From an uncultured Bacteroidales bacterium (GTDB taxonomy: Bacteria > Bacteroidota > Bacteroidia > Bacteroidales > Paludibacteraceae), in NCBI GenBank assembly GCA_900317885.1, contig ONIM01000006.1, positions 6,975 through 70,974 of the forward strand: DNA of 64,000 nt, given 5' to 3'. Every line of letters begins with the position of its first letter. Within the stretch, counting starts at the first letter, position 1. Made by a program: the position numbers and the translations under genes. The notes beneath the pieces are model-generated. The model was not told where the DNA came from, did not search any database, and worked only from the letters and a program-made list of their open reading frames with translations. This document shows positions 1,434-59,044 of this stretch, piece after piece.

Positions 1434-2705
1434 ATGCAAGAAAATTCGCAAACTTTTTATCATATTTTGCCAAATGGCGTAAAAATCGTCCATCGATGGA
1501 CACCTTCGCCTGTGGTATATGCGGGCGTAATGGTCGGCGCCGGGACGCGCGACGAAGCCCCCGAAGAAAACGGAATGGCGCATTATATCGAGCACTGTGT
1601 CTTCAAAGGCACAACCCACCACTCCGCGCGGCAAATCATTCATTCCATCGAAGGCATCGGAGGAGAGATTAACGCCTATACCACCAAAGAGGAGACCACT
1701 TTCTATGCCGCCATCCTTGCCGAACACGTTCAGCTGACGCTGCATCTCATTGCAGAGATGATTCTCCAGCCCACGTTCAAAAAAGAAGAGACAGACAAAG
1801 AGCGGATGGTCATTATGGATGAGATAGAGAGCTACAACGACAGCCCCTCTGAACTCATCTACGACGATTTCGAGAGCCTCGTTTTCGCCGGTTCCAGCCT
1901 CGAGATGCCCATTTTAGGCACCAAAAAGACACTCAGACACATCTCTTCCAAACCCTCCTACCCGCTCGAATGGATGAAAACCCACTACACACCCGACCGG
2001 ATGGTGGTTTTCTGTCAGGGAAACGTCAAACCCGAAAAAATCTTCCGACTCGCCGAAAAAGAATTCGGCTCACTTCCTACCCAACCTCAAAACACGCCCA
2101 ACACCGACGGTCAACCGACGGTCAACCGACAGTCAACCGACGGTCAAAGCCCCTGTAAGTTCGAGGTTTCTTACCGGAAAAACACCCACCAGGTCCACGC
2201 GATGATGGGTGGAAAAGCGTATCCGCTGGGGCATGAGAAACAACTGCCGATGTTTTTGCTCAATAACATCTTGGGCGGCGGAAGTCTCAACAGCCGGCTC
2301 AATCTCTCGCTACGTGAGTCCAAAGGCCTTGTATATACCGTCGAATCAACCTATACACCCCTTTCCGACACAGGCTACTGGTGCATCTATTGGGCGTGCG
2401 ACCCGGAGGACTACACCCAAAGTCTGGCGATGGTGCAAAAAGAGCTGGACAAACTACGCGAGACACCGCTCACGCAATCCGCTTTACGTCACGCGCTCAT
2501 TCAACTACGCGGACAATTAGCCATCTCCGCGCAAAACCAGGAAAACGCAGCGCTCGCCATGGCAAAATCGATGCTATACCATGGTTCGGCACCAGATTGG
2601 CAGCAAACTTTCGAAAAAATAGCAAATACGACACCACAAGAGCTTTTTGAAGTAGCAAATGATTTGTTTTTGGCGCAAAATCGTTACATTTTGACATACA
2701 AATAG
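1434..2705 (+). CDS. M16 (pitrilysin/insulinase) family zinc peptidase
   Basis: 423-aa ORF with the inverted zinc motif HxxEH (HYIEHCVFKGT) near the N-terminus. Length is typical for M16B. Confidence 0.88.
   Translation: MQENSQTFYHILPNGVKIVHRWTPSPVVYAGVMVGAGTRDEAPEENGMAHYIEHCVFKGTTHHSARQIIHSIEGIGGEINAYTTKEETTFYAAILAEHVQLTLHLIAEMILQPTFKKEETDKERMVIMDEIESYNDSPSELIYDDFESLVFAGSSLEMPILGTKKTLRHISSKPSYPLEWMKTHYTPDRMVVFCQGNVKPEKIFRLAEKEFGSLPTQPQNTPNTDGQPTVNRQSTDGQSPCKFEVSYRKNTHQVHAMMGGKAYPLGHEKQLPMFLLNNILGGGSLNSRLNLSLRESKGLVYTVESTYTPLSDTGYWCIYWACDPEDYTQSLAMVQKELDKLRETPLTQSALRHALIQLRGQLAISAQNQENAALAMAKSMLYHGSAPDWQQTFEKIANTTPQELFEVANDLFLAQNRYILTYK
2103..2146 (+). repeat. 11-nt tandem repeat x4 (ACCGACGGTCA) inside the M16 peptidase CDS
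   Basis: accgacggtca/accgacggtca/accgacagtca/accgacggtca, read directly. Encodes TDGQPTVNRQSTDGQ. Confidence 0.95.
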
Positions 2706-12778: not shown

Positions 12779-12985
12779 TTGTATGAATATGTTTGCGGGA
12801 TGCGAAAAGGGAGCACGGATTGGGCAAAAAAGAAGGACACGAGAGGGTGGATGAATGTTTTTCACCATTTTGCCCCACTTTTGCTTAAAATGTTAATAAC
12901 GTGCATAAAATGCTGATTTTAAGAGCAATATAGCATGGTTAAAAATGTTTAAAAGATGTTGATAAAACAATTGAAAAATTTTTTC

Positions 12986-13027
12986 GTGGGGAAATGTGGT
13001 GTATATCAAAAAAAAGTTGTAACTTTG
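12986..13027 (+). promoter_or_regulatory. dcw promoter: -7 box TAACTTTG (13020-13027) preceded by two GTGG(G/T) boxes 10 nt apart (candidate MraZ operator)
   Basis: GTGGG at 12986 and GTGGT at 12996. TAnnTTTG lies 60 nt upstream of the mraZ ATG. Confidence 0.4.
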
Positions 13028-13086
13028 TGCCCGAAATTGAAAGAGTATAGCAAACTGAGTACAGAATACAGCAAAGCGATATAGAT

Positions 13087-13548
13087 ATGCAGACTTTTGT
13101 TGGAAATATAGAAGGACGGTTGGACGAGAAGGGACGTATATTTGTTCCGGCGATTTATCGTCGTATTTTGGCGGATTCGGAATCCAAGCGCATTGTGATG
13201 CGGAGGGATACGGATAACGAGTGTCTGATGTTCTATCCGGAAGAGGTTTGGAACGAGAAGGTGGAGCAGTTGCGCCAGGCGTTGGATGAGTGGGATCCGG
13301 AGGATCAGCTGATTCTGATGCAGTTCATGGCCGATGCGGAATATATGGAGATGGACGGTCAGGGACGTATTTTGCTGCAAAAGAAGAACCTGGAGACCAT
13401 CGGTGCGCAGCAGGATGTGCTGTTTGTCGGCATGCTGAACCGCTTTGCGTTGTGGGCACCGGAGAAATTCGCAGAGAAACGGCTGAGTCAGACCGAATTG
13501 GCGGCAAGACTGCGGGCAAAGATGAAGAAATCCGGAGACCGCGATTGA
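13087..13548 (+). CDS. mraZ: Transcriptional regulator MraZ
   Basis: 153 aa. N-terminal MQTFVGNIEGRLDEKGRIFVPA and second-half DGQGRILL (duplicated SpoVT/AbrB-like MraZ halves). First gene of the dcw cluster. Confidence 0.93.
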   Translation: MQTFVGNIEGRLDEKGRIFVPAIYRRILADSESKRIVMRRDTDNECLMFYPEEVWNEKVEQLRQALDEWDPEDQLILMQFMADAEYMEMDGQGRILLQKKNLETIGAQQDVLFVGMLNRFALWAPEKFAEKRLSQTELAARLRAKMKKSGDRD

Positions 13549-13585
13549 ACCGACAGCGTAGTGACGTTATACGAACGACGCAGTA

Positions 13586-13629
13586 ATAACGCGGAAATAA
13601 CGTGGAAATAACGCGCTAATCACGCGCTT
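13586..13629 (+). repeat. 11-nt tandem array x4 (AATAACGCGGA / AATCACGCGCT) in the mraZ-rsmH spacer
   Basis: aataacgcgga/aataacgtgga/aataacgcgct/aatcacgcgct, read directly. Related to the array at 38473. Confidence 0.9.
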
Positions 13630-13751
13630 AGGATGAATAAAAAGAACGTAAACAGGCAATAAAAGGAGAACAAAGAAAAGGCTATAAACAGCCCCCCCCA
13701 AAAAAAAAGAATAAAAATAAATAAATAATAAATAAATAATAAATAGAGAAG

Positions 13752-14780
13752 ATGGAAGAGATATACCACATACCGGCGATGCTGAAAGAGACGATAGAGG
13801 GTTTGGCGATCAAGCCGAACGGGGTGTATGTGGATGTCACTTTCGGCGGCGGAGGACACAGCAGGGCGATATTGGAGAAGATAGCCCCACCCGACCTCCC
13901 CATAGAGGGGAGGAGAAAAGGAGAGAAGGAAGAAAAGGGAGGGCGGCTATTCTCGTTCGACCAGGATATAGAGGCATATGAAAATGCGAAGGAAGACGGA
14001 GAAGCGGCATTCATAGATAATCCGAGATGGACGTTTGTGCATTCGAATTTCAGGTATCTGCGGAACTGGATGGATTATTACGGGGTGCAAGAGATTGACG
14101 GGTTGCTGGCAGATTTAGGAGTTAGTTTTCACCATTTCGATTGTCCGGAGCGAGGGTTTAGTTTTCGGTTCAGCGCGCCGTTAGACATGCGGATGAACCA
14201 GACGGCGAAACGGACGGCGGCGGATATAGTAAACGGGTACAGCGAGGAGGAGTTAGCGAAGATTTTCTGGTTATACGGCGAAATGAAGAACGGGAGGGGC
14301 ATCGCAAGGAATATATGCAAGGCCCGTTCTCAGAAGCCGATTTTAAGGACAGAGGAGCTGGTAGAAGCGGCGCTGAACATAAAAGCCCAGCCCCACCCTA
14401 ACCCTCCCCATGAAGGGGAGGGAAGCCGGGAGCTGGATATTCCGGCGCAGTACAAGAAGGATCTGGCGAGGCTGTTTCAGGCGCTCAGGATAGAGGTGAA
14501 CGATGAGATGGGGGCGCTGCGGGAGATGTTAGTGGCGGCACGGGATTTAGTGAAGCCCGGAGGACGGATAGCCATCCTGACGTACCACTCGTTAGAGGAT
14601 CGGTTGGTGAAGAATTTCTTTAGAAGCGGAAACCTGGAAGGGACGATAGAAAAAGACTTTTACGGAAACGCGATTACTCCGTTTGATGTTATCGAGAAAG
14701 GGCGAGTGGCCAGCGACGATGAAGTAGAACGGAACCCGCGTAGCCGGAGTGCGAAGTTGCGGGTGGCGGAGAAAAAATAA
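13752..14780 (+). CDS. rsmH: 16S rRNA (cytosine1402-N4)-methyltransferase RsmH, carrying two short in-frame insertions
   Basis: MEEIYHIPAMLKE..., SAM-binding DVTFGGGGHS, LTYHSLEDRLVK, NPRSRSAKLRV. Synteny after mraZ. Confidence 0.93.
   Translation: MEEIYHIPAMLKETIEGLAIKPNGVYVDVTFGGGGHSRAILEKIAPPDLPIEGRRKGEKEEKGGRLFSFDQDIEAYENAKEDGEAAFIDNPRWTFVHSNFRYLRNWMDYYGVQEIDGLLADLGVSFHHFDCPERGFSFRFSAPLDMRMNQTAKRTAADIVNGYSEEELAKIFWLYGEMKNGRGIARNICKARSQKPILRTEELVEAALNIKAQPHPNPPHEGEGSRELDIPAQYKKDLARLFQALRIEVNDEMGALREMLVAARDLVKPGGRIAILTYHSLEDRLVKNFFRSGNLEGTIEKDFYGNAITPFDVIEKGRVASDDEVERNPRSRSAKLRVAEKK
13885..13913 (+). repeat. GC-rich palindromic element copy 1 (CCCCACCCGACCTCCCC-ATAGA-GGGGAGG), in frame in rsmH
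   Basis: Inverted repeat CCTCCCC/GGGGAGG with a 5-nt loop. Translated as PPDLPIEGR. Confidence 0.9.
14391..14422 (+). repeat. GC-rich palindromic element copy 2 (CCCCACCCTAACCCTCCCC-ATGAA-GGGGAGGG), in frame in rsmH
   Basis: Read directly. Translated as PHPNPPHEGEG. Confidence 0.9.
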
Positions 14781-14784
14781 GAAT

Positions 14785-15099
14785 ATGGCAGATGTACATG
14801 ACATACAGAGTTGGTTGAACGGCGATATGCTGCGGAGCCAGAAGATCAGAGAACAATACCCGCTGATTGGGTTGATTGTGGGTCTGGTCTTTTTGTATAT
14901 TCTGACGGGTTACCAGTCTGCCAAACAACAACACCGGTTGACGGACACGAAAAAGGAGATGCTGGACGCCAAGTTCCGGTACATGACGATTAGCGCGCAG
15001 TTGACGAATAGCACCAGGCAGAGCCAAGTGATAGAGGTGCTGAAGGTTAACGGAAGTGAGTTGCAAGAAAACCGGGTACCGCCGGTGAAGGTAAAATAA
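14785..15099 (+). CDS. ftsL: FtsL-like cell-division protein
   Basis: 104 aa from the ATG at 14785. Single TM helix (YPLIGLIVGLVFLYILTGY). Position between rsmH and ftsI. The stop overlaps the ftsI ATG (TAATG). Confidence 0.75.
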   Translation: MADVHDIQSWLNGDMLRSQKIREQYPLIGLIVGLVFLYILTGYQSAKQQHRLTDTKKEMLDAKFRYMTISAQLTNSTRQSQVIEVLKVNGSELQENRVPPVKVK

Positions 15100-16895
15100 T
15101 GAGTGACGAGCAGAGAAATACGGTATGGAGGTTCGCGATGATATTCATCGTGATCGCTTTGGGTTTTGTAGCTGTGCTCGCGAAAATCGTGTATATCCAG
15201 GCGGTGGAGAGAGACGAGTGGTTGAAAGTAGCGGAGAAACAAGTGCCGACGAACAGGCCTATTCCTGCGACACGGGGAAATATCCTGGATTGCAACGGAC
15301 GATTGCTGGCGAGCAGTATGCCGCAATATTATATATATATGGATACACGCGTGCCCGCGTTGCACGAGAAAAAGGGGGAGTTGTTCAACAAACATATCGA
15401 CACGCTGGCTCTGGATCTGGCAACGATTATCGGGGATAAGAGCCCGGCGGAGTACAAGGCTAAGATCGTAGGGGCTTACCGGCATGGAGAGAAACGCTTG
15501 CGTGTTTGCGAGAACCGCATCAATTATCTGCAGCGGCAGGCTTTGGAGCAGAACAAGCTCATAAAAAAAGGCAAGTATAAAAGCGGTATTTTCTTTGAGG
15601 ACCAACATAGAAGAATCAAACCTTACGGATTGTTGGCAAGCCGTACGATAGGTGGTATTTACGGCGAAGGCGGAAGTGGTAACTCGGGTCTGGAGAAGGG
15701 TTTTGACAAAGAGTTGAGGGGCGTTGACGGCATGAGCAGTATTCAGCGAATCGGCGGCCGGAATGAGTCCGTGACGGTAGAAGAGGCGCAGGACGGTCGG
15801 GATATTGTGACTACGATTGATGCCAATCTGCAGGATATCGTGGAGAATGCGTTGCTGGCGAAGACGGCGGAACGAAATGCCAAGTGGGGTTGCGCCATAC
15901 TGATGGAGACGCAGACCGGGTACATCCGCGCGATAGCCAATCTGGACAGGTCTGAGGAGGACGGCAAATACTACGAGGCGCAGAACCATGCCGTACAACG
16001 TGTAGAACCGGGTTCGACGTTCAAGACGATTGCTCTGATGGCGGCGCTGGACGACGGGAAGATTGATATAGACGACACAGTGGCGGTTAGTCGGACGCCG
16101 TGGAAATATTTCTCAGTGACGCATACTGACGCCCACCCAATGGACACGATTCTGACGGTGAGGAGCGCTTTGGCGGTGTCTTCGAATATCGCGCTGGCAA
16201 AGTTGATCACGAGGAGTTATGAAGGTTCGGCGCGAAAGTTCGTGAGGCGGATTGAGAAGATGGGACTGCTGGACAGCGTTTATTGCGAGATTCCGGGGGC
16301 TGATAAGGCGCGTATCGAGGTGCCAAAAGACACCGTGACGCTGAGTAAGATGAGTTACGGGTACTCGGTAGAGTTGAGTCCGATGCAGCTTCTGATGTTC
16401 TACAACGCGATTGCCAACGGCGGACGGATGATGCGGCCGATGTTAGTGACCGCGGTGCAGCAGAACGGCGAAGTGGAGGAGAGTTTCAGGCCGGAGGCAG
16501 TGAAGTCTTCTATCTGCGGGAAGGGCACGTTGCGGGATATACAAGGGGCGCTGCATGACGTTGTTTGGGACGACCATCTGGGTACCGCGGCGGCGAAGTT
16601 ATGGAGCAAGAAAGCGCAGTCTAAGCTCGTGAATATCGCCGGCAAGACGGGTACGGCACAGCTGTTTATGCGCGGTCACGGCTACTCGGGCAAACACCAT
16701 AGGATGACTTTTGTGGGGTACTTCCCGGAGGAGAATCCGCAGTACACGTGTATCTGCATGATCGAGGATCCGCAGTACCCGTACGACGCGGGAATGGACT
16801 GCGGCAGCACGGTGCGAGTGATTGCAGAGAAGACGATGGCGTACACAGGATGCTATGTTTGGAAGGATGGAGAACGCAAATTAGTAAAACGATGA
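15099..16895 (+). CDS. ftsI: Penicillin-binding protein 3 / peptidoglycan D,D-transpeptidase FtsI
   Basis: N-terminal TM anchor. Motifs STFK (GSTFKTIALMAAL), SSN (AVSSNIAL) and KTGT (AGKTGTAQ). dcw synteny. Confidence 0.92.
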   Translation: MSDEQRNTVWRFAMIFIVIALGFVAVLAKIVYIQAVERDEWLKVAEKQVPTNRPIPATRGNILDCNGRLLASSMPQYYIYMDTRVPALHEKKGELFNKHIDTLALDLATIIGDKSPAEYKAKIVGAYRHGEKRLRVCENRINYLQRQALEQNKLIKKGKYKSGIFFEDQHRRIKPYGLLASRTIGGIYGEGGSGNSGLEKGFDKELRGVDGMSSIQRIGGRNESVTVEEAQDGRDIVTTIDANLQDIVENALLAKTAERNAKWGCAILMETQTGYIRAIANLDRSEEDGKYYEAQNHAVQRVEPGSTFKTIALMAALDDGKIDIDDTVAVSRTPWKYFSVTHTDAHPMDTILTVRSALAVSSNIALAKLITRSYEGSARKFVRRIEKMGLLDSVYCEIPGADKARIEVPKDTVTLSKMSYGYSVELSPMQLLMFYNAIANGGRMMRPMLVTAVQQNGEVEESFRPEAVKSSICGKGTLRDIQGALHDVVWDDHLGTAAAKLWSKKAQSKLVNIAGKTGTAQLFMRGHGYSGKHHRMTFVGYFPEENPQYTCICMIEDPQYPYDAGMDCGSTVRVIAEKTMAYTGCYVWKDGERKLVKR

Positions 16896-18391
16896 TACTC
16901 AGCGAATTATTAAAAGTTATCGAGCCGATAGAGGTGATCGGCGGGACGGAAAAAGAGATCAAGGGTCTGCATTTTGACAGCCGTAAGATCGGAGAAGGTG
17001 ACTTATTCGTTGCCCAGATCGGCACAGCAGTAGATGGTCACACGTTCATTGATGGTTGTGTCGAAAAAGGGGCAGCGGCGGTGGTACTTTCCAAGAGAGA
17101 GTATATAAGCCCCCACCTGACCTCCCCCATGAAGGGGGAGGAAGGTAAGTGCACCTTCATCTTGGTCGAGAACACGGATAAGGCGTTGGGATTGCTGGCG
17201 AGCAAGTGGTTTGGCGAGCCGAGTAAGGCGTTGACGCTGGTCGGCGTGACGGGTACGAACGGCAAGACCACTATCGCGACGCTGTTGTACAAACTCGTTC
17301 GGGCGTTAGGACATAAGGCGGGACTGCTGTCCACCGTGGTCAATTATATCGAGGATGAGGCGGTGCCTGCGACGCACACGACGCCGGACGCGATTGAGTT
17401 GAACGGATTGCTGAGACGGATGGTGGACGCCGGTTGCGAGTACGCGTTTATGGAGGTGAGTTCGCACGCGATTGCGCAAGAACGAATAGCGGGTCTGGAT
17501 TTCGACGGGGCACTGTTTACCAACCTGACGAGGGATCATATTGACTACCATAAGACTTTTGACAACTACCGGGATACAAAGAAAAGGCTTTTTGACGGAC
17601 TGAAGAAGGGGGCTTTTGCGGTGACGAACAAGGATGACAAGAACGGGTTGGTGATGACGCAGAACTGCAAGGCGGAAGTGAAGACCTACTCCACCCGCTC
17701 GCTGGCGGACTATAAGGCACAGATTTTGGAGGAAGGATTTGAGGGTATGATGCTGAATATCAACGGCAAAGAGGTTTTCGTGCCGCTGGTAGGACGATTC
17801 AACGTCAGCAATCTGCTGTGTATCTACGGCGCGGCGCTGTGTCTGGGATTTGAAGAGCTGGAGGTGCTGCGTGTGCTGAGCACGTTGAAACCGGTTAACG
17901 GTCGGTTTGAGACAATCAGAAGCCCGAAAGGCTGGACGGCGATTGTCGATTACGCCCACACGCCGGACGCGGTAGATAATGTGATTCAGACGATAAGGGA
18001 GATCATTGGAAGTGACAAAGTGACAAAGGACCAAGGACCAAGAAAACTGATCACGGTGGTCGGTTGCGGCGGGAACCGGGACAAGGGTAAACGACCGATG
18101 ATGGCGCAGATTGCAAAGAGGGGAAGCGAGCAGTTGATTTTGACGAGCGATAACCCGCGAGACGAAGAGCCGGCAGATATCTTGAATGATATGAAAGCAG
18201 GTTTGACGGAAGAGGAACTCAGGAGTACGTTGGTTATCGAGGACCGCGAGGCGGCTATCCAGACGGCTTGTATGTTGGCGCAGAAAGGCGATGTGATTCT
18301 GGTGGCAGGCAAGGGTCATGAGGACTACCAGATTATCAAGGGTGTCAAGCACCATTTTGATGATCATGAGATTGTGAGAAGATATTTATGA
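16892..18391 (+). CDS. murE: UDP-N-acetylmuramoyl-L-alanyl-D-glutamate--2,6-diaminopimelate ligase MurE
   Basis: The ATG at 16892 overlaps the ftsI stop (ATGA). P-loop GVTGTNGKTT and DNPR motif (TSDNPRDEEP). The upstream part of ORF 16748 is read-through inside ftsI. Confidence 0.93.
   Translation: MILSELLKVIEPIEVIGGTEKEIKGLHFDSRKIGEGDLFVAQIGTAVDGHTFIDGCVEKGAAAVVLSKREYISPHLTSPMKGEEGKCTFILVENTDKALGLLASKWFGEPSKALTLVGVTGTNGKTTIATLLYKLVRALGHKAGLLSTVVNYIEDEAVPATHTTPDAIELNGLLRRMVDAGCEYAFMEVSSHAIAQERIAGLDFDGALFTNLTRDHIDYHKTFDNYRDTKKRLFDGLKKGAFAVTNKDDKNGLVMTQNCKAEVKTYSTRSLADYKAQILEEGFEGMMLNINGKEVFVPLVGRFNVSNLLCIYGAALCLGFEELEVLRVLSTLKPVNGRFETIRSPKGWTAIVDYAHTPDAVDNVIQTIREIIGSDKVTKDQGPRKLITVVGCGGNRDKGKRPMMAQIAKRGSEQLILTSDNPRDEEPADILNDMKAGLTEEELRSTLVIEDREAAIQTACMLAQKGDVILVAGKGHEDYQIIKGVKHHFDDHEIVRRYL
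17110..17142 (+). repeat. GC-rich palindromic element copy 3 (CCCCCACCTGACCTCCCCC-ATGAA-GGGGGAGG), in frame in murE
   Basis: Read directly. Translated as SPHLTSPMKGEE. Confidence 0.9.
18012..18041 (+). repeat. Tandem 8/7-mers GTGACAAA x2 + GGACCAA x2 in frame in murE
   Basis: gtgacaaagtgacaaaggaccaaggaccaag. Encodes DKVTKDQGPR. Confidence 0.9.
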
Positions 18392-18418
18392 TTTATGATT
18401 TAGGATTTAGGATTTATG
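18384..18418 (+). repeat. 7-nt tandem array x5 (ATTTATG/ATTTAGG) spanning the murE stop and the mraY start
   Basis: atttatg atttatg atttagg atttagg atttatg. The murE TGA (18389-18391) and the mraY ATG (18416-18418) are both inside array units. Confidence 0.95.
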
Positions 18419-19687
18419 TTATATTCATTATTTACCCATTTTAGCGATGTGTTAGGTGCGCGGTTGTTCACCTATATCTCGTTCAGAGCTATTTTAGCGG
18501 GGGTCATCGGACTGCTCGTGAGTATCTGGTTTGGCGACCGGTTTATCAATTTCATGAAGCGCCATCACATCTCTGAGACGCAGCGGGACGAGAAGACCGA
18601 TCCGTTCAATGTAGCGAAAAAAGGTGTACCGACGATGGGTGGTCTGATTGTCATTGCGGCGATTCTGATTCCGTGTCTGCTATTAGGTAAGCTGACGAAC
18701 GTATATATGATTCTGATGCTCGTCACGACCCTTCTGATGGGGGCTCTGGGCTTTGCGGACGACTATATCAAGACGTTCAAGAAGAACAAAGACGGCCTGA
18801 ACGGATGGGTAAAGATTGCAGGGCAAGTGAGCTTGGGTCTGATTGTAGGTCTGACGTTGCGTTTCTGCCCGGCGGTGAGTATGAATGAGGTGGTGACAAG
18901 TCATATTGAGAACAATGTGGTGGTCGTTGAGAAAACGCCGGAGATCAAATCCACACAAACGACTATTCCTTTTGTGAAGCACCATAACTTCAATTATGCG
19001 GATTTGTTCAGTTGGACCGGCGAGAACAATAAGTACCGGTTCGGTTGGATTTTCTTCGTGTTCTTGACGGTTTTTGTAGTAGCGGCGGTTAGCAACGGCG
19101 CGAACCTGAACGACGGCATGGACGGCATGTGTGCCGGCAACTCGGCTATTATCGGCGTGGCGTTGCTGATTTTAGCGTACACGAGCGGTAGTGTTGTTTG
19201 GGCGGAGTATTTCGATGTGATGTACATCCCGGGTAGCGAAGAGTTGGTGGTATTTATGGCGGCTTTTGTAGGTGCGTTGGTGGGTTATCTGTGGTTTAAC
19301 GGGTTCCCGGCGCAGGTGTTCATGGGCGATACAGGAAGTCTGACGGTCGGCGGAATCATCGGCGTTTGCGCGATGGTTATTCATAAGGAACTGATGGTGC
19401 CGGTATTGTGCGGAATATTTTTGATGGAGAGCGTGAGTGTGATTCTGCAGACGCAGGTGTATAAGTACTATAAGAAACGCGGACAACATGTGCGGATCTG
19501 GAAGCGGACGCCGCTCCATGACCATTTCCGGACGAGCGTAGAGCAGGTGCTGAAGAACGATCCGACGTGCTCGATTGTGTTTAAGGGCAGCAAGAATCTG
19601 CACCACGAAACGAAGATCGTACTGCGTTTCTGCATTGTGACGCTGATTTTGGCGGCAATTACTATTTTGACACTGAAAATACGATAA
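18416..19687 (+). CDS. mraY: Phospho-N-acetylmuramoyl-pentapeptide transferase MraY
   Basis: 423 aa polytopic membrane protein. Motifs PTMGG, NLNDGMDG and MGDTGS. Confidence 0.95.
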   Translation: MLYSLFTHFSDVLGARLFTYISFRAILAGVIGLLVSIWFGDRFINFMKRHHISETQRDEKTDPFNVAKKGVPTMGGLIVIAAILIPCLLLGKLTNVYMILMLVTTLLMGALGFADDYIKTFKKNKDGLNGWVKIAGQVSLGLIVGLTLRFCPAVSMNEVVTSHIENNVVVVEKTPEIKSTQTTIPFVKHHNFNYADLFSWTGENNKYRFGWIFFVFLTVFVVAAVSNGANLNDGMDGMCAGNSAIIGVALLILAYTSGSVVWAEYFDVMYIPGSEELVVFMAAFVGALVGYLWFNGFPAQVFMGDTGSLTVGGIIGVCAMVIHKELMVPVLCGIFLMESVSVILQTQVYKYYKKRGQHVRIWKRTPLHDHFRTSVEQVLKNDPTCSIVFKGSKNLHHETKIVLRFCIVTLILAAITILTLKIR

Positions 19688-19689
19688 AT

Positions 19690-21000
19690 ATGAAGCGAAT
19701 CGTTGTTTTAGGAGCCGGAGAGAGTGGTAGCGGTGCTGCCATTCTGGCGAAGGAGAAGGGTTTTGATGTGTTTGTAAGCGACTGCGGGACGATTAGCGAC
19801 CCGTACCGCGCGTTGCTGGACCAGAACGGGGTTTCATGGGAAGACGGCAAGCACAGTGAGGAGTTGATTCTGAATGCCGACGAGGTGGTTAAATCGCCGG
19901 GTATTCCTCTGACGGCTCCGCTGATTCAGAAGCTGCAGGCACAAGGCACGCCGATCATCAGCGAGATTGAGTTTGCATCGAGATATACGAATGCGAAGAT
20001 GATCTGTATCACCGGTTCAAACGGCAAGACGACCACCACTTCGTTGATCTTCTATATCTTAAAACAAGCAGGTCTGAATGTGGGTCTGGCGGGCAATATC
20101 GGCAACTCGCTGGCGTTGCAAGTGGCGCATGAGGATCATGACTACTATGTGATTGAGTTGAGTTCGTTCCAGCTGGACAACATGTACGACTTCAAGGCGG
20201 ATGTCGCCATCTTGCTGAATATCACGCCGGACCACCTGGACCGGTACGACTATAAGTTCCAGAACTACGTCGATGCGAAGTTCCGTATCACGAGGAATCA
20301 AACGAAGGAGGACAGCTTTATTTATTGGGCGGAGGATCCGGTTATTGATAGAGAGATGAAGCGACTGCAGTTAGGCGCGACGCTTTATCCATACGGATTC
20401 ACGGTGCCTAATCCGCTGCCGGTGAGCGAAGAGGAGTTGGCGCTGAAGGGAAGGCATAATGTGCTGAACTCGATGGCAGCGACCATTGCGGCGAATGTAG
20501 TAGGAATCAAGAAAGAGGTCATCCGCGAGAGTCTGAAGACTTTCCAGGGGGTTGAGCACCGTTTGCAATACGTAGCGACCGTTCGCGGCGTGAGATGGAT
20601 CAACGACTCGAAGGCAACGAATGTGAACAGCTGCTGGTACGCGCTGGAGAGTATGACTACGCCGACCGTGCTGATTTTAGGCGGAAAGGACAAAGGCAAC
20701 GACTACAGCGAGATAGACGAGCTGGTGAATGAGAAATGCCACACCTTGGTATTCATGGGGCTGCATAATGAAAAGTTAAGAGAACATTTCGGGAAATTAG
20801 TCGAAAGTCAAAAGTCGAAAGTCGAAAGACCCATTCAAATCATTGATACCAACAACCTGCATGACGCGGTGCAAGCAGCTTATCACGCAGCGAAAGAAGG
20901 CGACACCGTGTTGCTGAGTCCGTGTTGCGCAAGTTTTGACCTCTTTAAGAGTTATGAGGACCGCGGCGAGCAGTTTATGGAGGCCGTTCGGAAGCTTTAA
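19690..21000 (+). CDS. murD: UDP-N-acetylmuramoylalanine--D-glutamate ligase MurD
   Basis: Rossmann-type MKRIVVLGAGESG, P-loop ITGSNGKTTT, C-terminal LLSPCCASFDLFKSYEDRG. Confidence 0.94.
   Translation: MKRIVVLGAGESGSGAAILAKEKGFDVFVSDCGTISDPYRALLDQNGVSWEDGKHSEELILNADEVVKSPGIPLTAPLIQKLQAQGTPIISEIEFASRYTNAKMICITGSNGKTTTTSLIFYILKQAGLNVGLAGNIGNSLALQVAHEDHDYYVIELSSFQLDNMYDFKADVAILLNITPDHLDRYDYKFQNYVDAKFRITRNQTKEDSFIYWAEDPVIDREMKRLQLGATLYPYGFTVPNPLPVSEEELALKGRHNVLNSMAATIAANVVGIKKEVIRESLKTFQGVEHRLQYVATVRGVRWINDSKATNVNSCWYALESMTTPTVLILGGKDKGNDYSEIDELVNEKCHTLVFMGLHNEKLREHFGKLVESQKSKVERPIQIIDTNNLHDAVQAAYHAAKEGDTVLLSPCCASFDLFKSYEDRGEQFMEAVRKL
20795..20831 (+). repeat. 7-nt tandem array (GTCGAAA x4, preceded by AAATTA) in frame in murD
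   Basis: aaattagtcgaaagtcaaaagtcgaaagtcgaaagacc. Encodes KLVESQKSKVERP. Near-identical to the array at 40421. Confidence 0.93.
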
Positions 21001-21031
21001 TGGCGCTAAATAAAGAAAAAAGACAATAAAA

Positions 21032-21063
21032 TTTGCATATATGCAAAAATTGTAGTAATTTTG
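21032..21063 (+). promoter_or_regulatory. Promoter: 16-nt palindrome TTTGCATATATGCAAA (contains -33 TTTG) plus -7 TAATTTTG
   Basis: TTTG at 21032 and TAATTTTG at 21056-21063, 20 nt upstream of the ATG at 21083. Confidence 0.5.
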
Positions 21064-21082
21064 CACGCAAAATTGTACAGAT

Positions 21083-33490: not shown

Positions 33491-34597
33491 TTATTGTCCG
33501 AGGCGGTGGAGATGGCAGAGCATGAGGGATCCGTCCTCCCGGCGGAGGTGCATGCCGTTTCCTTCGCAGTACGTCCATGCTTTGCAGTCTTTGCAGGGTT
33601 CGAGTTGCCGCATCCAAGAGCGGTCTCGGTAGGGCTTGAAGCCGTTTTCCCATACGGACCAGAAGGAGTCGCGGTAGATGTTTCCCTGGTAGTATTTGCC
33701 GCGGATGGAGGTGCAGGCAGAGATGGAACCGTCGATGAGGATGGAAGCGACGGAGATACCGGCGGCACATTGATACAGGTGGTCCCGGACGCGCCCCTCG
33801 TAGGTGCCGAGATAACCTTCGCAGGAATAAGAGACATGCCGCCCTGCTTCGCGCTCGGAGGCAATATAATCCATGAGGTATTGGAACTGTTCGTCGGTCA
33901 GCAGGAGTTCGGGATTAGAAGCCGCGCGGCCCATAGGGTCGATGCCGAAGACACGCCAGTCTCGCACGCCGAGCGACCAAAGCATCTCACGGATTTGGGG
34001 CAGGTGGTCTATCGTGCGTTGGTTGACACAAGTGACGACGTCGAAGGCGAGGTGAGGCCCCACCCGACCTCCCCATGAAGGGGAGGAGAGAGAGTTATTA
34101 TAATCAACTATCAGTTTGATGGCACGGGTGGCACCTTCGAAAGCCAAAGGGTGCTGACGAAGCCAGACATGGTCTTGCTCGAGACCATCGCAGGAGACCG
34201 TGATAGAGCGTAAACCGGCAGAGAGGAGTTCGTGGAATTTCTGTTCGGTCAGAGCAAGTCCGTTGGTTACCATGCCCCATGGATAGCCTCGTTGCTTGAG
34301 GGCACGGCCTATCTCTGCAAGGTCTTTGCGCATGAGGGGTTCACCGCCGGAAATGATGATCAGCACTTTGTGCGGATCGACATGCGGCGTGATCTCTGTA
34401 TCAATGACCCGAAGGAAATCTTCTGCGGGCATGTCGGGTGTCTCGATGGAAGCAACGCAATCGCTGCCGCAATGCAGGCAATGCACATTGCAGCGGAGCG
34501 TGGACTCCCAGAAGAGTTGACGGAGAGGATGCAATTCCTTCAGGTTGCGGCGGCGGATGGACTCCAGCCAGAGGGCAATTTTCAAACGGAGATTCAT
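33491..34597 (-). CDS. Radical SAM enzyme with C-terminal SPASM (auxiliary 4Fe-4S) domain
   Basis: CNVHCLHCGS (CxxxCxxC) near the N-terminus, IISGGEP. C-terminal Cys-rich region (CEGYLGTYEG...YQCAAGISV...SACTSIRG...LEPCKDCKAWTYCEGNG). Translationally linked to an upstream lipoprotein gene. Confidence 0.88.
   Translation of the reverse strand: MNLRLKIALWLESIRRRNLKELHPLRQLFWESTLRCNVHCLHCGSDCVASIETPDMPAEDFLRVIDTEITPHVDPHKVLIIISGGEPLMRKDLAEIGRALKQRGYPWGMVTNGLALTEQKFHELLSAGLRSITVSCDGLEQDHVWLRQHPLAFEGATRAIKLIVDYNNSLSSPSWGGRVGPHLAFDVVTCVNQRTIDHLPQIREMLWSLGVRDWRVFGIDPMGRAASNPELLLTDEQFQYLMDYIASEREAGRHVSYSCEGYLGTYEGRVRDHLYQCAAGISVASILIDGSISACTSIRGKYYQGNIYRDSFWSVWENGFKPYRDRSWMRQLEPCKDCKAWTYCEGNGMHLRREDGSLMLCHLHRLGQ
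34058..34086 (+). repeat. GC-rich palindromic element copy 4 (CCCCACCCGACCTCCCC-ATGAA-GGGGAGG), in frame in the minus-strand rSAM gene
   Basis: Same plus-strand orientation as copies 1-3, but the gene is on the minus strand. Translated as SPSWGGRVGPH. Confidence 0.9.
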
Positions 34598-34601
34598 AAG
34601 G

Positions 34602-34629
34602 GGTTAGCGGATTAGGGGTTAGGGATTAG
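34602..34629 (+). repeat. 7-nt tandem array (GGTTAGC/GGATTAG/GGGTTAG/GGATTAG) at the lipoprotein-rSAM junction
   Basis: Read directly. The lipoprotein stop codon (34612-34614) lies inside the array. Reverse-complement relatives occur in mfd at 56234. Confidence 0.9.
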
Positions 34630-37184: not shown

Positions 37185-37396
37185 ACCTTTTCCATTTTAG
37201 AGATTTCTTCCGCCTCTTTATGAAGCATTTCATCCAGCTGCTTTTGGTCATGAATAGTGTCGCGACGGTCGGGTTCGTTCATCCAATTTTCGTCCGGAGG
37301 GGCAGGGGCATAGCAGGCAGCAAAAGTGAACGCTACCCCTGTCAGTAGGCAGAGCTTGATGCTCATCCGCAAAATGTAGTCAATCATGTTTCGCAT
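37181..37396 (-). CDS. Small acidic lipoprotein (paralog A1, 71 aa)
   Basis: MRNMIDYILRMSIKLCLLTGVAFTFAAC-YAPAPP... Its N-terminal half is near-identical to the 37698..37889 product. ATGA overlap with B1. Confidence 0.6.
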   Translation of the reverse strand: MRNMIDYILRMSIKLCLLTGVAFTFAACYAPAPPDENWMNEPDRRDTIHDQKQLDEMLHKEAEEISKMEKV

Positions 37397-37421
37397 AACG
37401 GTACGGGATTAAAATTTGCTG

Positions 37422-37429
37422 CAAAGGTA
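37422..37429 (-). promoter_or_regulatory. -7 promoter box (TACCTTTG on minus strand) for the A1-to-rSAM operon
   Basis: Plus-strand CAAAGGTA about 26 nt upstream of the ATG at 37396. Confidence 0.5.
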
Positions 37430-37491
37430 GTGTGTTTTGGCGAGATATGCAAATTTTGGTGTTGGGAAATTTATTGGGATTTTATTTTGCG

Positions 37492-37697: not shown

Positions 37698-37889
37698 TTA
37701 GTTTTTTGGGGTTTCTTCCGCTTCTTTCTGAAGCACTTCATCAACTTGCTCCTGATCCTCGACGAAAGCGGGATCGTCTTCGTAACGCGTAGGGGCAGGA
37801 CCGTAACAAGCCGCAAACGTGAACGCGACTCCGGTCAACAAGCAGAGCTTGATGCTCATCCGCAAAATCCGGTCGATGGTGTTTCGCAT
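37698..37889 (-). CDS. Small acidic lipoprotein (paralog A2, 63 aa)
   Basis: Internal ATG of ORF 37698..38183: MRNTIDRILRMSIKLCLLTGVAFTFAAC-YGPAP. The upstream part of the long ORF is low-complexity and overlaps the neighbouring gene on the same strand. Confidence 0.6.
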   Translation of the reverse strand: MRNTIDRILRMSIKLCLLTGVAFTFAACYGPAPTRYEDDPAFVEDQEQVDEVLQKEAEETPKN

Positions 37890-37914
37890 AATGGTACGTT
37901 TATAAAATTCGGCG

Positions 37915-37922
37915 CAAAGATA
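37915..37922 (-). promoter_or_regulatory. -7 promoter box (TATCTTTG on minus strand) for the A2-B2 module
   Basis: Plus-strand CAAAGATA about 26 nt upstream of the ATG at 37889, the same spacing as for A1. Confidence 0.5.
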
Positions 37923-37947
37923 TAACATTTTTTTGAAATATGCAAAT

Positions 37948-38391
37948 TTATTTGCAAAAATCGCCGGAAGTTTCTTTTCGAAGGATAGCCCGGATGAAAT
38001 TATCGATGCGGGCATAGATAGTAAAATTGCCGTCTTTGTCCTTGGGTGCGATTGGATCCGGCTTGCCTTTGAGCTGCTTGTAGAAACGGGCTTTGTAGGA
38101 ATCAAGGAGTGCTTGTTTCTCGGGCGGAAGGGGCGTCTTGTTCTTGAGGGCGTCAATGAACTCTTGCGCCATATGAGAGACATTTCCGAACGCGTTCATA
38201 TTTGCCCGTTCTCCGGCGAGAATGGGGTTGGCTTTGTAGTTGCGAGGCTTAGGGGTATAGGCTTCCAGACGGCCGACTTTAGTGACATTACCGTCGTAGT
38301 CATGGTAATGTTTGCGGCGCTCAGTCATGCCGCCTTTTTCATGAGCACCGAGCATTTCTTCGATGTGTGAGGTGTGTTTGATTTTTGCCAT
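37948..38391 (-). CDS. Hypothetical basic protein (147 aa)
   Basis: Clean ORF starting MAKIKHTSHIEEMLGAHEKGG, Lys-rich, no signal peptide. Has its own -7 box upstream. Family not recognised. Confidence 0.6.
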   Translation of the reverse strand: MAKIKHTSHIEEMLGAHEKGGMTERRKHYHDYDGNVTKVGRLEAYTPKPRNYKANPILAGERANMNAFGNVSHMAQEFIDALKNKTPLPPEKQALLDSYKARFYKQLKGKPDPIAPKDKDGNFTIYARIDNFIRAILRKETSGDFCK

Positions 38392-38472
38392 ATAAAGAGT
38401 TGGTATTTTGTGAATATTTGTTGTCGGGGCATTAAATGGGGGTTGAAATTGTAGGCGGAGAGTCCTATTATC

Positions 38473-38516
38473 TCGTACTTATGACGCACTAATCACGCAC
38501 TTATCACGCACTAATT
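38473..38516 (+). repeat. 11-nt tandem array x4 (ACGCACTAATC-type)
   Basis: tcgtacttatg/acgcactaatc/acgcacttatc/acgcactaatt. Shares the core TAATCACGC with the array at 13586. Confidence 0.9.
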
Positions 38517-38521
38517 TTGCG

Positions 38522-38529
38522 CAAAGGTA
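38522..38529 (-). promoter_or_regulatory. -7 promoter box (TACCTTTG on minus strand)
   Basis: Plus-strand CAAAGGTA upstream of the gene starting at 38391. Confidence 0.4.
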
Positions 38530-38662
38530 CTACTTTTTTTTGAGATTTGCAAGAAAAAAAGGCGGATTTTTTAGGTAAAGAATACTATATTATATATAAA
38601 TATATAATATACTTTTTGAAGGGACTTTTTGAGTGGGAAAAGCACCATCCGAGCTCTCTCCT

Positions 38663-38837: not shown

Positions 38838-39827
38838 ATGCAAGTAGATATCAGAGAATTGCAAGAGCGCGTGGAGCGCGAGAGTTCCTTTGTAGATGCT
38901 TTGACCCTTGGTATGAACCAAGTCATCGTGGGGCAGAAGCACTTAGTAGAGAGTTTGCTTATCGGTCTGTTGAGCGACGGGCACATATTGTTGGAAGGAG
39001 TGCCGGGTTTGGCAAAAACCCTCGCTATCAAGACCTTAAGCGACCTCATCAAGGCTAACTTCAGCCGTATTCAGTTTACGCCGGATCTGTTGCCTGCCGA
39101 TGTACTCGGTACGCAGATCTACAGCCAAAAGAGCGAAGAGTTCAAGATCAAGAAAGGTCCGATCTTCGCTAATTTTGTGTTGGCAGATGAGATCAACCGT
39201 GCTCCCGCGAAAGTGCAGAGTGCCTTACTCGAGGCGATGCAGGAGCGCCAAGTGACCATCGGAGAGCAGACCTTCAAGCTCGACGATCCGTTCCTCGTAC
39301 TGGCTACCCAGAACCCGATTGAGCAGGAAGGTACGTATCCTCTCCCGGAGGCGCAGACCGACCGTTTCATGCTCAAAGTGGTCATCGGGTATCCGAAGAA
39401 AGAAGAGGAGCAAGCCATCATCCGGCAGAACATCGCTTCCGAGAAGAAACAGGTGCTCCCTATCCTCTCCACCGCAGATATCATCAAGGCGCGGAAGATC
39501 GTCGAGGAGGTTTATCTGGACGAGAAGATCGAGAAATACATCGTGGACATCGTGTTTGCGACCCGCGAACCGGAGAACTACGAGCTCAAGGACCTGAAGC
39601 AGATGATCGCGTTTGGCGGCAGTCCTCGTGCAAGTATCAACCTGGCGAAGGCAGCTCGCGCGTACGCGTTTATTCATAGGAGAGGCTACGTGACGCCGGA
39701 AGACGTACGTGCCGTTTGCTACGACGTACTGCGTCACAGAATCGGGCTGACGTACGAGGCAGAAGCCAACAACATTACTACAGAAGACATTATCACAGAG
39801 GTACTCAATGCGGTACAAGTTCCTTAA
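38838..39827 (+). CDS. MoxR-family AAA+ ATPase
   Basis: Walker A GVPGLAKT, Walker B FVLADEINRA. Typical ~330 aa. First gene of the moxR-DUF58-bat operon. Confidence 0.93.
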   Translation: MQVDIRELQERVERESSFVDALTLGMNQVIVGQKHLVESLLIGLLSDGHILLEGVPGLAKTLAIKTLSDLIKANFSRIQFTPDLLPADVLGTQIYSQKSEEFKIKKGPIFANFVLADEINRAPAKVQSALLEAMQERQVTIGEQTFKLDDPFLVLATQNPIEQEGTYPLPEAQTDRFMLKVVIGYPKKEEEQAIIRQNIASEKKQVLPILSTADIIKARKIVEEVYLDEKIEKYIVDIVFATREPENYELKDLKQMIAFGGSPRASINLAKAARAYAFIHRRGYVTPEDVRAVCYDVLRHRIGLTYEAEANNITTEDIITEVLNAVQVP

Positions 39828-39828
39828 A

Positions 39829-39860
39829 CTAGGAATCTAGGAAACTAGGAGACTAGAATT
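39829..39860 (+). repeat. 8-nt tandem array x4 (CTAGGAAT/CTAGGAAA/CTAGGAGA/CTAGAATT) filling the moxR-DUF58 junction
   Basis: Begins 2 nt after the moxR TAA and ends at the base before the ATG at 39861. Confidence 0.93.
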
Positions 39861-40763: not shown

Positions 40764-40765
40764 TA

Positions 40766-40793
40766 ATTTATGATTTATGATTTATAATTTATT
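40766..40793 (+). repeat. 7-nt tandem array x4 (ATTTATG/ATTTATA/ATTTATT) at the DUF58/next-gene junction
   Basis: Same unit as at 18384. It supplies the ATG at 40777. Confidence 0.9.
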
Positions 40794-53020: not shown

Positions 53021-53147
53021 CCCCCAATATACCCCAATATATCCCCAATACAACCCCAATATGCCCCCAATACACCCCCCTAACAAGACCCTAACAAGAC
53101 CCTCACCATAGGATCACCATAAGATGACCATAGGATCACCATAGGAT
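53021..53147 (+). repeat. Mosaic of three adjacent degenerate tandem arrays: CCCCAATAT(n) x5, CTAACAAGACC x2, CACCATAGGAT x4
   Basis: Read directly in the 640-nt noncoding rimP-mfd spacer. Periods are about 10-11 nt. Confidence 0.92.
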
Positions 53148-59031: not shown

Positions 59032-59044
59032 AAATTTGATATTT

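Follow-up and report, generated by a model that had tools for sequence, protein, structure and literature searches.

We examined a stretch of 64,000 nucleotides from an uncultured Bacteroidales bacterium of the Paludibacteraceae (contig ONIM01000006.1; the whole stretch is called the window here) for short tandem arrays, several of which had been noticed at gene junctions in an earlier reading of the sequence alone. The gene map consists of genes called on identical contigs and supported by Pfam domains, and repeats were detected over the 64 kb with Tandem Repeats Finder (TRF), keeping merged, non-overlapping arrays with a period of 6-15 and at least 2.8 copies. Near-exact contig matches to the window came from cattle-rumen metagenome assemblies. 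The MraY protein of the window is 100% identical to that of Bacteroidales bacterium UBA4331, although the surrounding DNA is about 10% different. Twenty-nine arrays were found, of which 8 were intergenic, 6 overlapped gene ends and 15 lay wholly within open reading frames (ORFs), so that the sequence-only reading had seen arrays that are real but only the subset at junctions. All seven of the junction arrays that it listed were recovered where it had placed them:

18384-18418, plus strand: murE/mraY array, (ATTTATG/ATTTAGG)x5, reading ATTTATG ATTTATG ATTTAGG ATTTAGG ATTTATG
34599-34629, minus strand: array between two minus-strand genes, AGGGATT x4.3, also scored as a 15-mer x2.1
39826-39856, plus strand: moxR/DUF58 array, (AAACTAGG)x3.9
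40758-40796, plus strand: array between the DUF58 gene and a gene for a 297-residue protein, ATTTATG-type x4.4, also scored as a 14-mer x2.8
56745-56789, plus strand: mfd/kdsB array, 14-mer AAATTTGAAATCAT x3.1
57514-57554, plus strand: kdsB/PNP array, 8-mer ACGGAATT x4.9
59032-59064, plus strand: array upstream of yidC, AAATTTG-type x4.7

The positions claimed for stop and start codons at these arrays also hold base by base. The murE TGA (18389-18391) lies in the first unit(s) of its array and the mraY ATG (18416-18418) in the last unit. The array that follows DUF58 is 85% identical to the murE/mraY array (family D3) and contains both the DUF58 TGA (40761-40763) and the ATG (40777-40779) of the 297-residue gene; the mfd/kdsB array likewise contains the mfd TGA (56751-56753) and the kdsB ATG (56778-56780). 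Between moxR and DUF58 the array fills the gap from the moxR TAA (39825-39827) to the DUF58 ATG (39861), and is invariant in 5 assemblies. The kdsB TAA (57522-57524) is inside the kdsB/PNP array, downstream of which lies a conserved 'atattaacc' leader, while the array upstream of yidC begins directly after a TAA (59029-59031) and ends 15 nt before the yidC ATG. On the minus strand, the array at 34599-34629 contains the stop of a gene for 148 residues (34612-34614) and ends 1 nt from the start codon of a radical-SAM gene.

Relatives, denoted below by locus labels (L009, L107 and so on), were drawn from two sets. The first comprised 80 species whose MraY is 65-100% identical to that of the window, with 20 kb taken from each (1.51 Mb in all); these species are mostly labeled as Paludibacteraceae of rumen or hindgut origin. 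The second comprised loci around kdsB from rumen relatives and, for comparison, from human-gut Bacteroidales. The whole sample consists of the 64-kb window and about 2 Mb of relatives' loci around three marker genes.

When orthologous junctions were compared, sister species were found to carry different units, different copy numbers or no array at all. At murE/mraY the array is ATTTATG/ATTTAGG x4 in L009, AATTAAA-type in L010, AAATATCG in L011, ATTTGAC x7 in L012, ATTTGTA x8 in L013, GTGTAAA in L042 and AGGTTAA x10 in L054, and in L017, L028, L040, L050 and L062 the junction consists of a stop, 2-4 nt and an ATG with no array. The same turnover of units was seen at mraZ/rsmH, with spacers between 4 and 519 nt long among relatives, at mfd/kdsB, at kdsB/PNP and upstream of yidC, where the array is missing or made of other units in relatives. 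At mfd/kdsB, several relatives have an ATGA stop/start overlap and L107 has GAAATTTGATATATGAAATTT, a single imperfect 14-nt direct repeat that spans the stop of mfd (TGA) and the start of kdsB (ATG); this L107-type segment stands in three copies in the window. The mfd/kdsB array thus appears to be a tandem duplication of the junction itself, which is why it "supplies" both codons. At kdsB/PNP, kdsB ends in TAA in species without an array, and in those with one the stop is a TGA formed by the first array triplet. The ancestral junctions were 0-20 nt long and often ATGA overlaps, and the array-free states are compact. Intercistronic spacing is indeed altered by the arrays, as had been proposed: it differs between lineages, and the mfd/kdsB overlap has given way to a gap of 24 nt.

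The arrays are far more numerous than chance would allow, with 29 in the window against 0.3-0.6 in Markov-1/3/5 simulations (maximum 2), and 50 kb of the E. coli dcw region contained none. In the 1.51 Mb of the first set of relatives there were 447 arrays, a density of 3.0 per 10 kb, with period 7 (244 of 447) followed by periods 11 (67) and 8 (38). Around kdsB the density was 5.1 arrays per 10 kb in rumen relatives versus 0.66 in human-gut Bacteroidales, the latter figure being mostly one orthologous array, and 42 of the 82 arrays of this set had period 7. Across more than 100 loci of related rumen and hindgut Paludibacteraceae, the density is about 3-5 arrays per 10 kb. A human-gut Bacteroidales species outside the repeat-rich clade (contigs L149-L162) carries one array near kdsB, TCATAAA x4.6, which lies about 30 nt upstream of the gene, ends at its start codon and is identical in about 11 contigs. 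Perfect runs of at least three copies showed the same preference, with 40 observed against 0 simulated for period 7 and 9 against 0 for period 11; the excess was clearest at 7 and 11, weaker at 6 and 8-10, and not seen at periods 4 and 5, and the arrays are thus not the product of slippage or repair that is defective in general. The distribution of copy numbers has its maximum near four units both in coding and in non-coding DNA, and a typical cassette has about 4 imperfect units and about 30 nt, with period 7 much commoner than 11, and 11 commoner than 8.

By context, the 447 arrays comprised 167 that were intergenic, 117 at gene boundaries and 163 (36%) in coding sequence, and 123 of these 163 have a period not divisible by three, as do 11 of the 15 arrays within ORFs of the window. 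Non-coding DNA makes up 8.4% of the bases and holds or touches 63% of the arrays. The proposed enrichment at gene boundaries therefore stands as an enrichment of about 7-fold in non-coding DNA, but convergent and divergent spacers are about equally array-bearing (0.22 arrays per co-directional, 0.16 per convergent and 0.36 per divergent junction). With per-junction frequencies similar in all orientations and 163 of the 447 arrays inside ORFs, specificity for operon junctions has to be given up: the arrays are not an operon-junction device. Judged from the sampled 2 Mb around three marker genes, the junction arrays of the window would be one visible part of thousands of family-wide cassettes that lie both between and inside genes.

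Arrays inside genes of the window included the following:

2103-2147, plus strand: in an M16 peptidase gene, 11-mer ACCGACGGTCA x4.1, 45 nt, 15 codons
13911-13938, plus strand: in rsmH, 8-mer AGGAGAAA x3.4
18010-18042, plus strand: in the C-terminal part of murE, AAGTGACA x2.4 and GACCAAG x3
20799-20828, plus strand: cassette in murD, AGTCGAA x4.3, encoding VESQKSKVE
40427-40449, plus strand: cassette in DUF58, AGTCGAA x3.3, encoding VESRKSK
45811-45836, plus strand: in batD, CATCAGA x3.7
46292-46328, plus strand: in batE, 19 nt into the gene, 8-mer TCGGTATA x4.6
50296-50323, minus strand: in the N-terminal region of infB, sense AAAGAGC x3.9
56233-56266, plus strand: in the mfd linker, CCGCTAAC x4.4
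63348-63384, minus strand: in rlmN, GATTGGA x4.3

The murD cassette is an in-frame insertion of +30 nt into a loop whose sequence is FGGFGLN in most relatives. Other lineages carry AATCACA (L017), CAATCAG (L038), GGCCAAC (L029), AAAACCC (L080), an 8-mer (L051), a small hairpin (L016, L024) or decayed copies (L014, L020) in the same loop, and insertions of +30, +21, +15 and +24 nt, all in frame, were found at this one site. A loop in the N-terminal domain of MurE is a similar hotspot, at which the window has no array but a 33-nt hairpin, described below; at the murE site corresponding to 18010-18042, relatives have an AGTCGAA cassette. The rsmH array belongs to a 51-nt in-frame insertion, made up of a hairpin and the array, that is polymorphic among strains. 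The Mfd linker is hypervariable in all relatives, and in its array one unit is 7 nt long, which yields an in-frame period of 15 nt (ANPLTTNPLT) and avoids the TAA of the unit. The murD and DUF58 copies of AGTCGAA are in the same reading frame and between the same flanks (AAATT...AGACC), both reading KLVES(Q/R)KSKVER. The DUF58 copy is old, for KLVESRKSKVE recurs in many DUF58 homologues (87-92% identity). Coding arrays as a whole are stop-free and purine-rich (A 38%, G 25%).

In order to judge how stable the unit number is, about 150 array-by-assembly comparisons were made. Most conspecific assemblies differ from the window by 0.1% or less, and none of these shows a unit change in any array; the murE/mraY array, for example, has 5 units and a single one-base polymorphism across 8 conspecific assemblies. 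At 2.5-5% divergence, about 25 comparisons gave one unit change, the loss of an 8-mer unit from the kdsB/PNP array of L102 (2.9% diverged); at this level a 12-mer unit also differed in frame and a 51-nt insertion was polymorphic. At about 10% divergence, in L009, one 7-nt and one 11-nt unit change were found along with several whole arrays present in one genome and absent from the other; at murE/mraY, L009 differs from the window by one unit, having 4. Most species pairs are 63-77% identical, at which level indel-length spectra from whole-locus pairwise alignment are uninformative, and the indel comparison is therefore confined to the window with L009 and to L001 with L002. These counts would put the rate of unit change at only a few times the per-site substitution rate, far below that of contingency loci. 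With the functional stop placed in the first unit(s) and the start codon either in the last unit or beyond it, gain or loss of units between the two alters spacing only and switches neither gene off. The proposal of phase variation is not upheld by a copy number that is fixed near-clonally and changes rarely at 2.5-5% divergence; on the time scale of populations the arrays persist unchanged, their turnover takes place between species, and they are not contingency or phase-variation loci.

The relation of the arrays to the flanking codons was followed at co-directional junctions, where 94 of 210 arrays (45%) reach or contain the upstream stop but only 8% reach the start; 86 of them end within 10 nt of the downstream start or overlap it, and 108 end no more than 30 nt away. 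Among 124 heptamer arrays at such junctions in relatives, 81% have units with a sense-strand stop against 70±3% expected from composition, and 12% have units with an ATG against 19% expected. The idea that the units are rich in both kinds of triplet thus holds modestly for stops and does not generalize for ATG, and the related idea that arrays supply both codons applies often to the upstream stop, whereas the start codon inside an array, as at mraY, is the exception. Stops come to lie inside arrays because an ORF that enters a 7-mer array samples three frames within 21 nt, and in some cases because the stop-bearing junction is itself the duplicated unit. On the sense strand junction arrays are A 41%, T 28%, G 17% and C 14%, and start regions with arrays fold less stably than those without (-4.3 versus -7.5 kcal/mol), about as base composition alone predicts. 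Initiation in Bacteroidia proceeds without Shine-Dalgarno pairing and is tuned by mRNA structure and upstream nucleotides (PMC6847099).

Several observations point beyond simple slippage and count in favor of copying between loci. Non-adjacent arrays shared an identical unit in 8.2% of cases within a genome, compared with 1.0% for non-orthologous arrays between genomes. Some copies also share the order of their variant units and sometimes their flanks. In L024 a 32-nt irregular pattern occurs at two junctions 1.5 kb apart (8300 and 9859); TGTTTAG TGTTTAG AGTTTAG TGTTTAG occurs at four or five sites in L046 and L053; and an exact 30-mer, AGTCGAAAGTCAAAAGTCGAAAGTCGAAAG, is found at three sites in different species, namely the murD loop (window and L009-L012), the MurE loop (L013) and the mraZ-rsmH spacer of the distant L074. 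The variant unit AGTCAAA that these copies of the 30-mer share could have arisen convergently by CpG decay, for which the chance is about 1 in 16, and since CG-to-CA changes recur in the cassettes it is not strong proof of copying. At the murD loop and among the 51-nt alleles of rsmH, no target duplication or clean boundary was found, and adjacent bases differ too. Pooled, non-independent comparisons of arrays with their flanks gave a mixed result, 1.1% versus 6.6% at low divergence and 33% versus 24% at high divergence, and this pooled test showed no general constraint on arrays relative to flanks.

A second kind of small element was observed beside the arrays, a 33-nt C/G-rich hairpin of the form GCCCCACCYGACCTCCCC-ATGA-AGGGGAGGAGA. 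Its four copies in the window are all in frame within ORFs:

13884-13916: hairpin copy in rsmH
14392-14424: hairpin copy in rsmH
17110-17142: hairpin copy in murE
34057-34089, minus strand: hairpin copy in the radical-SAM gene

A scan of 1.5 Mb of relatives gave 120 both-strand hits (about 60 elements), 74 of which (62%) lay in ORFs, and none in shuffled sequence. The copy at 13884 is part of the 51-nt insertion, which some conspecific assemblies have and others lack. The hairpin was not found in viral contigs. Heptamer arrays were: in IMG/VR, perfect x4.3 arrays of AGTCGAA occurred in 31 contigs (L186-L216), of ATTTATG in 28 (L217-L244) and of TAACTGA in 26 (L245-L270), while each of three scrambles of AGTCGAA gave 0. 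The array-bearing contigs vary widely in GC content, and 18 of the 31 viral AGTCGAA arrays lie directly 5' of an ATG on the opposite (TTCGACT) strand.

We think it probable, with moderate confidence, that the junction arrays are the intergenic subset of lineage-wide cassettes that arise by a repeat-generating mutational process and are then filtered by selection. By one route, short direct repeats at the site, in some cases the stop/start junction itself, would seed tandem duplication or slippage; a second, apparent route would be the copying of pre-formed cassettes between loci. Selection would then decide where an array survives. A/T-rich units that contain stops would persist outside ORFs only, where they would now make up most of the formerly compact junctions, and stop-free purine-rich units would persist in frame in surface loops and linkers of proteins, essential ones included. 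The likely effect would be to uncouple genes that once overlapped and to provide an A-rich, C-poor, weakly structured leader, which may be tolerated, or perhaps be mildly favorable, where initiation is independent of Shine-Dalgarno pairing as in Bacteroidia. Several observations weigh against this account. The preference for periods 7 and 11 is not explained by plain slippage, nor is a copy-number mode near 4 in both coding and non-coding DNA, and slippage also leaves unexplained how an essential gene could acquire a 7-mer array without passing through frameshifted intermediates. In the murD cassette there are 0 differences in 30 positions across five species whose flanks differ by 7-21%, a poor fit to neutral junk, and the recurrence of the same heptamers in unrelated viral contigs hints at a sequence-specific function or propensity. 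The sample, moreover, is about 2 Mb around three marker genes.

The arrays might instead be functional cis-elements of mRNA or DNA, tandem sites beside start codons that would bind one protein per heptamer (S1 or a Csp-like protein, for example) and set initiation, for which a precedent has been proposed in the TAACTGA repeats of Beggiatoaceae (PMC4679880). The proximity of array ends to downstream starts (108 of 210 within 30 nt), the sense-strand asymmetry of A over T (41% versus 28%), the modest enrichment of sense stops with depletion of ATG, the nucleotide-level conservation of the murD cassette and the phage arrays placed directly 5' of ATG (18 of 31) all agree with such a role. Nevertheless, we regard it as quite unlikely: dozens of unrelated units coexist within 64 kb, unlike the target of one sequence-specific factor, convergent and divergent spacers bear arrays equally and 36% of arrays are inside ORFs, sister species lack arrays at the same essential-gene junctions, and the weak folding of the leaders follows from base composition alone. 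Alternatively, the cassettes and the 33-nt hairpin might be very small mobile elements, inserted pre-formed by a dedicated or hijacked enzyme in the manner of cyanobacterial small dispersed repeats or Rickettsia palindromic elements. Identical imperfect cassettes at non-orthologous sites (L024, the TGTTTAG type and the AGTCGAA 30-mer), the common flanks and frame of the murD and DUF58 copies, insertion hotspots whose occupants differ from species to species, a size that is characteristically about 4 units in every context, and a hairpin with four window copies, all in ORFs, and about 60 in relatives but none in shuffles are what would be expected of such elements. This too seems unlikely, as no terminal structure, target-site duplication or clean empty/filled pair was found, the window has no candidate enzyme, single-unit slippage and local seeding clearly happen, the CG-to-CA variant of the 30-mer may be convergent decay, and ectopic gene conversion could homogenize copies without mobility. 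A bolder combination of the two ideas, likewise doubtful, is one in which cassettes of about 30 nt and the 33-nt hairpin would be actively copied and inserted into junctions and essential genes and homogenized by conversion, and certain favored heptamers (AGTCGAA/TTCGACT, ATTTATG, TAACTGA) would serve as start-proximal elements in Shine-Dalgarno-poor bacteria and their phages.

The remaining two explanations fare much worse against the mutation-and-filtering account. Hypermutable contingency loci, in which gain or loss of units would tune or phase-vary translational coupling in core operons, would fit the differences in copy number and presence between species, including the one-unit difference between the window and L009 at murE/mraY, and the shift in spacing from an ATGA overlap to 24-70 nt. 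We consider this very improbable, given that more than 15 independent near-clonal assemblies show no unit change and that changes are rare at 2.5-5% divergence, that imperfect units suppress slippage, that changes within an array cannot inactivate either flanking gene and that the arrays are not specific to junctions. Assemblers may in principle have difficulty with short repeats, and the sequence-only reading had itself allowed for assembly artefacts; the chance that the arrays are assembly or sequencing artefacts is practically negligible, as the same arrays recur in more than 15 independent metagenome assemblies from different projects, are identical across samples, projects and assemblers, are shorter (20-60 nt) than the reads, and are flanked by long ORFs with Pfam domains intact on both sides.

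The window holds further arrays outside the seven junctions, most of them in spacers:

13585-13626, plus strand: 11-mer array in the mraZ-rsmH spacer, x3.8, core AATMACG
13706-13745, plus strand: A-rich array of period 11/7/4 that stops 6 nt short of the rsmH ATG
38470-38515, minus strand: 11-mer array, ATCACGCACTA x4, core AATCAC
38582-38611, no strand assigned: AT-only 7-mer array in the divergent spacer upstream of moxR, ATAATAT x4.1
52270-52330, minus strand: 9-mer arrays at the rimP/nusA boundary, CTCTAGGGC, then TCTAGTTCC x4.7
52358-52391, minus strand: heptamer cassette in rimP, CTTTGTA/CTTGGTA x4.4
53021-53147, no strand assigned: three abutting 11-mer arrays in the rimP/mfd divergent spacer, CCCCCAATATA x5.5, CCCTAACAAGA x2.4 and TCACCATAGGA x4.1
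61459-61496, no strand assigned: degenerate 8-mer array in a divergent spacer, TTAATAAC x4.9

The three arrays at 53021-53147 are identical in 4 assemblies, and in the array at 13706-13745 the length of the A-run alone varies among strains. In the mraZ-rsmH spacer, for which the ancestral length is 4-30 nt, at least 10 relatives have 11-mer arrays with the same core, and an 11-nt indel between L009 and the window was assigned by sequence to the array at 13585-13626. The array at 38470-38515 lies just downstream of a minus-strand Bacteroidetes-type promoter (38519-38546). In these two arrays and those of relatives (including L009 at 4824, L013 at 5048, L022 at 5245, L027 at 5022 and L041 at 4354), a core of AATCAC or AATAAC is conserved and the remaining 5 nt are variable, and such 11-mers were also seen at other loci in both orientations. 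Phasing by one helical turn together with the conserved core suggests a candidate site for a DNA-binding protein. The AATCAC 11-mers do not fit as MraZ operator repeats, being located downstream of mraZ. Direct repeats of ATGKTTAAAA x2.5 with a spacing of 10-11 nt lie at 12935-12960, just upstream of the mraZ promoter, with GTGGGG-AAAA x3 at the mraZ-upstream position in the more distant L084 and L071, and are probably the MraZ operator.

A copy of the rimP cassette with 97% identity stands 93 nt away, at 52451-52484, and an inverted, perfect 18-nt copy lies 10.7 kb away, at 41639-41656. Directly after 52330 the window lacks 79 nt that four same-strain assemblies have, and as a result its rimP ORF reads through the 9-mer array (LEELEEL...), overlaps the nusA start and encodes 201 residues rather than 170-172; either a real deletion variant or a local misassembly would account for the gap at 52330/52331. 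At the gathering threshold Rfam recognized only one tRNA in the window, which places the arrays outside known RNA families.

A dispersed similarity of 28-40 nt was also found at 2740-2779, 12992-13031, 21028-21067 and 38519-38546 (minus strand), upstream of a SusC-like gene, mraZ, a gene for 149 residues and a minus-strand operon, respectively; it matches the Bacteroidetes promoter consensus, TTTG-N19-21-TAnnTTTG. The dcw cluster (13087-21000 onward) runs mraZ-rsmH-ftsL-penicillin-binding protein gene-murE-mraY-murD, followed by the 149-residue gene and a DAHP synthase/chorismate mutase gene, and none of murF, ftsW, murG and murC adjoins it in the window. A direct repeat of 162 nt with 77% identity (37295-37456 and 37788-37949) spans two small minus-strand ORFs, probably paralogous small genes.

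As to whether such arrays have been seen before, the closest known kinds are the heptamer long simple sequence repeats (LSSRs), the short tandemly repeated repetitive sequences (STRRs) and the TAACTGA repeats, a little-studied but known kind. The suggestion that the arrays belong to no known class must be set aside, as heptamer direct repeats beside start codons are already known, with Paludibacter among the hosts (PMC4679880). For the Paludibacteraceae, a literature search turned up no account of such arrays. As Mrazek 2007 is quoted in PMC4679880 and PMC4692102, heptamers are the commonest long simple sequence repeats (SSRs) in many prokaryotes and are ascribed to polymerase slippage. In summaries of the LSSR5-11 survey (Mrazek, Guo & Shah 2007), units of 5-11 nt occur far beyond chance, heptamers most commonly, in non-pathogens and mostly between genes; coding DNA favors unit lengths divisible by three, and a tendency to expand by polymerase slippage, rather than phase variation, is given as the cause. 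The present arrays resemble LSSR5-11 in their excess over composition and in having heptamers as the most abundant class (244/447 and 42/82). They differ in their host, since uncultured gut Paludibacteraceae are not in the repeat-rich genome lists of those summaries, in having a strong second peak at 11 nt, in being short (about 4 units) and imperfect, and in that heptamers within ORFs (93) outnumber 6-mers (20) and 9-mers (15).

TAACTGA heptamers are known from marine Beggiatoaceae, some Cyanobacteria and five Bacteroidetes including Paludibacter propionicigenes (MacGregor 2015, PMC4679880). There 2-6 tandem heptamers stand a few nucleotides upstream of starts; as in the present arrays, there is no Shine-Dalgarno sequence, occasional copies lie in ORFs at variable loops and strains differ in 7-nt steps (PMC4679880). 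In that system, however, one unit dominates, whereas dozens of units coexist here, and the present arrays touch the upstream stop more often than the start. No TAACTGA dimer was found in the window, even with 1 mismatch, or in any Paludibacteraceae locus examined, and membership in that family was rejected.

The STRR heptanucleotides of heterocystous cyanobacteria were reportedly described by Mazel in 1990. The units reported here by TRF presumably differ from STRR1-3, so that the likeness is one of kind only. Tandem heptamers of the GGGAATC and GGGGA(T/C)T types occur in Xanthomonas and Nostoc (PMC4692102). With the STRR and Xanthomonas-Nostoc repeats the arrays have in common that they are genome-specific families of dispersed intergenic heptamers that vary in length and sequence at the same locus between close species; they differ in phylum, in having many more unit families, most of them without G-quadruplex potential, and in their frequent in-frame occupancy of coding sequence. 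In the phase-variable SSRs of Haemophilus, Neisseria and others the units are perfect and 1-5 (rarely 7) nt long, their number is hypermutable within a clone, and the position of the repeats is such that a change in it turns a gene on or off. Like them, our arrays are tandem repeats in or near genes whose unit number can change by slippage, but the units here are imperfect, copy number is clonally fixed and there is no frame or promoter switch; neither hypervariable unit number nor switch placement was found, and arrays within genes are fixed in frame. Elhai is said to have described, in 2008, small dispersed repeats (SDRs) of 21-27 nt in Nostocaceae, and Rickettsia palindromic elements (RPEs) are 100-150 nt long and inserted in frame into genes. 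The same short sequence at many non-homologous sites is a feature that the cassettes share with SDRs, and like SDRs and RPEs they are many-copy elements of tens of nucleotides that interrupt conserved sequence, genes included, in frame and encode no protein of their own; the cassettes differ in being internally tandem, and the hairpin here, which resembles RPEs, is far smaller, with 33 nt against 100-150 nt. Nostocaceae SDRs are mentioned in PMC5861425. Unusual features of the present arrays are the many unit families, the second period of 11 nt, the heavy in-frame occupancy of essential genes and an apparent dispersal of cassettes.

The origin and function of heptamer repeats, whether STRR, LSSR5-11 or TAACTGA, have been in question since 1990, and the Paludibacteraceae offer a comparative series for this question, with hundreds of sequenced species at graded divergence in which array birth, unit change, decay and replacement can be read at the same junctions and loops. 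In this family the arrays have repeatedly broken overlapping stop/start junctions in core operons and have added loops of 5-10 residues to enzymes such as MurD, MurE and Mfd. On the practical side, they inflate apparent intergenic diversity and displace the predicted ends of genes, and in rumen metagenomes both gene calling and strain typing can be misled by them. Should cassettes prove to be copied whole, they would rank with the smallest known mobile DNAs.

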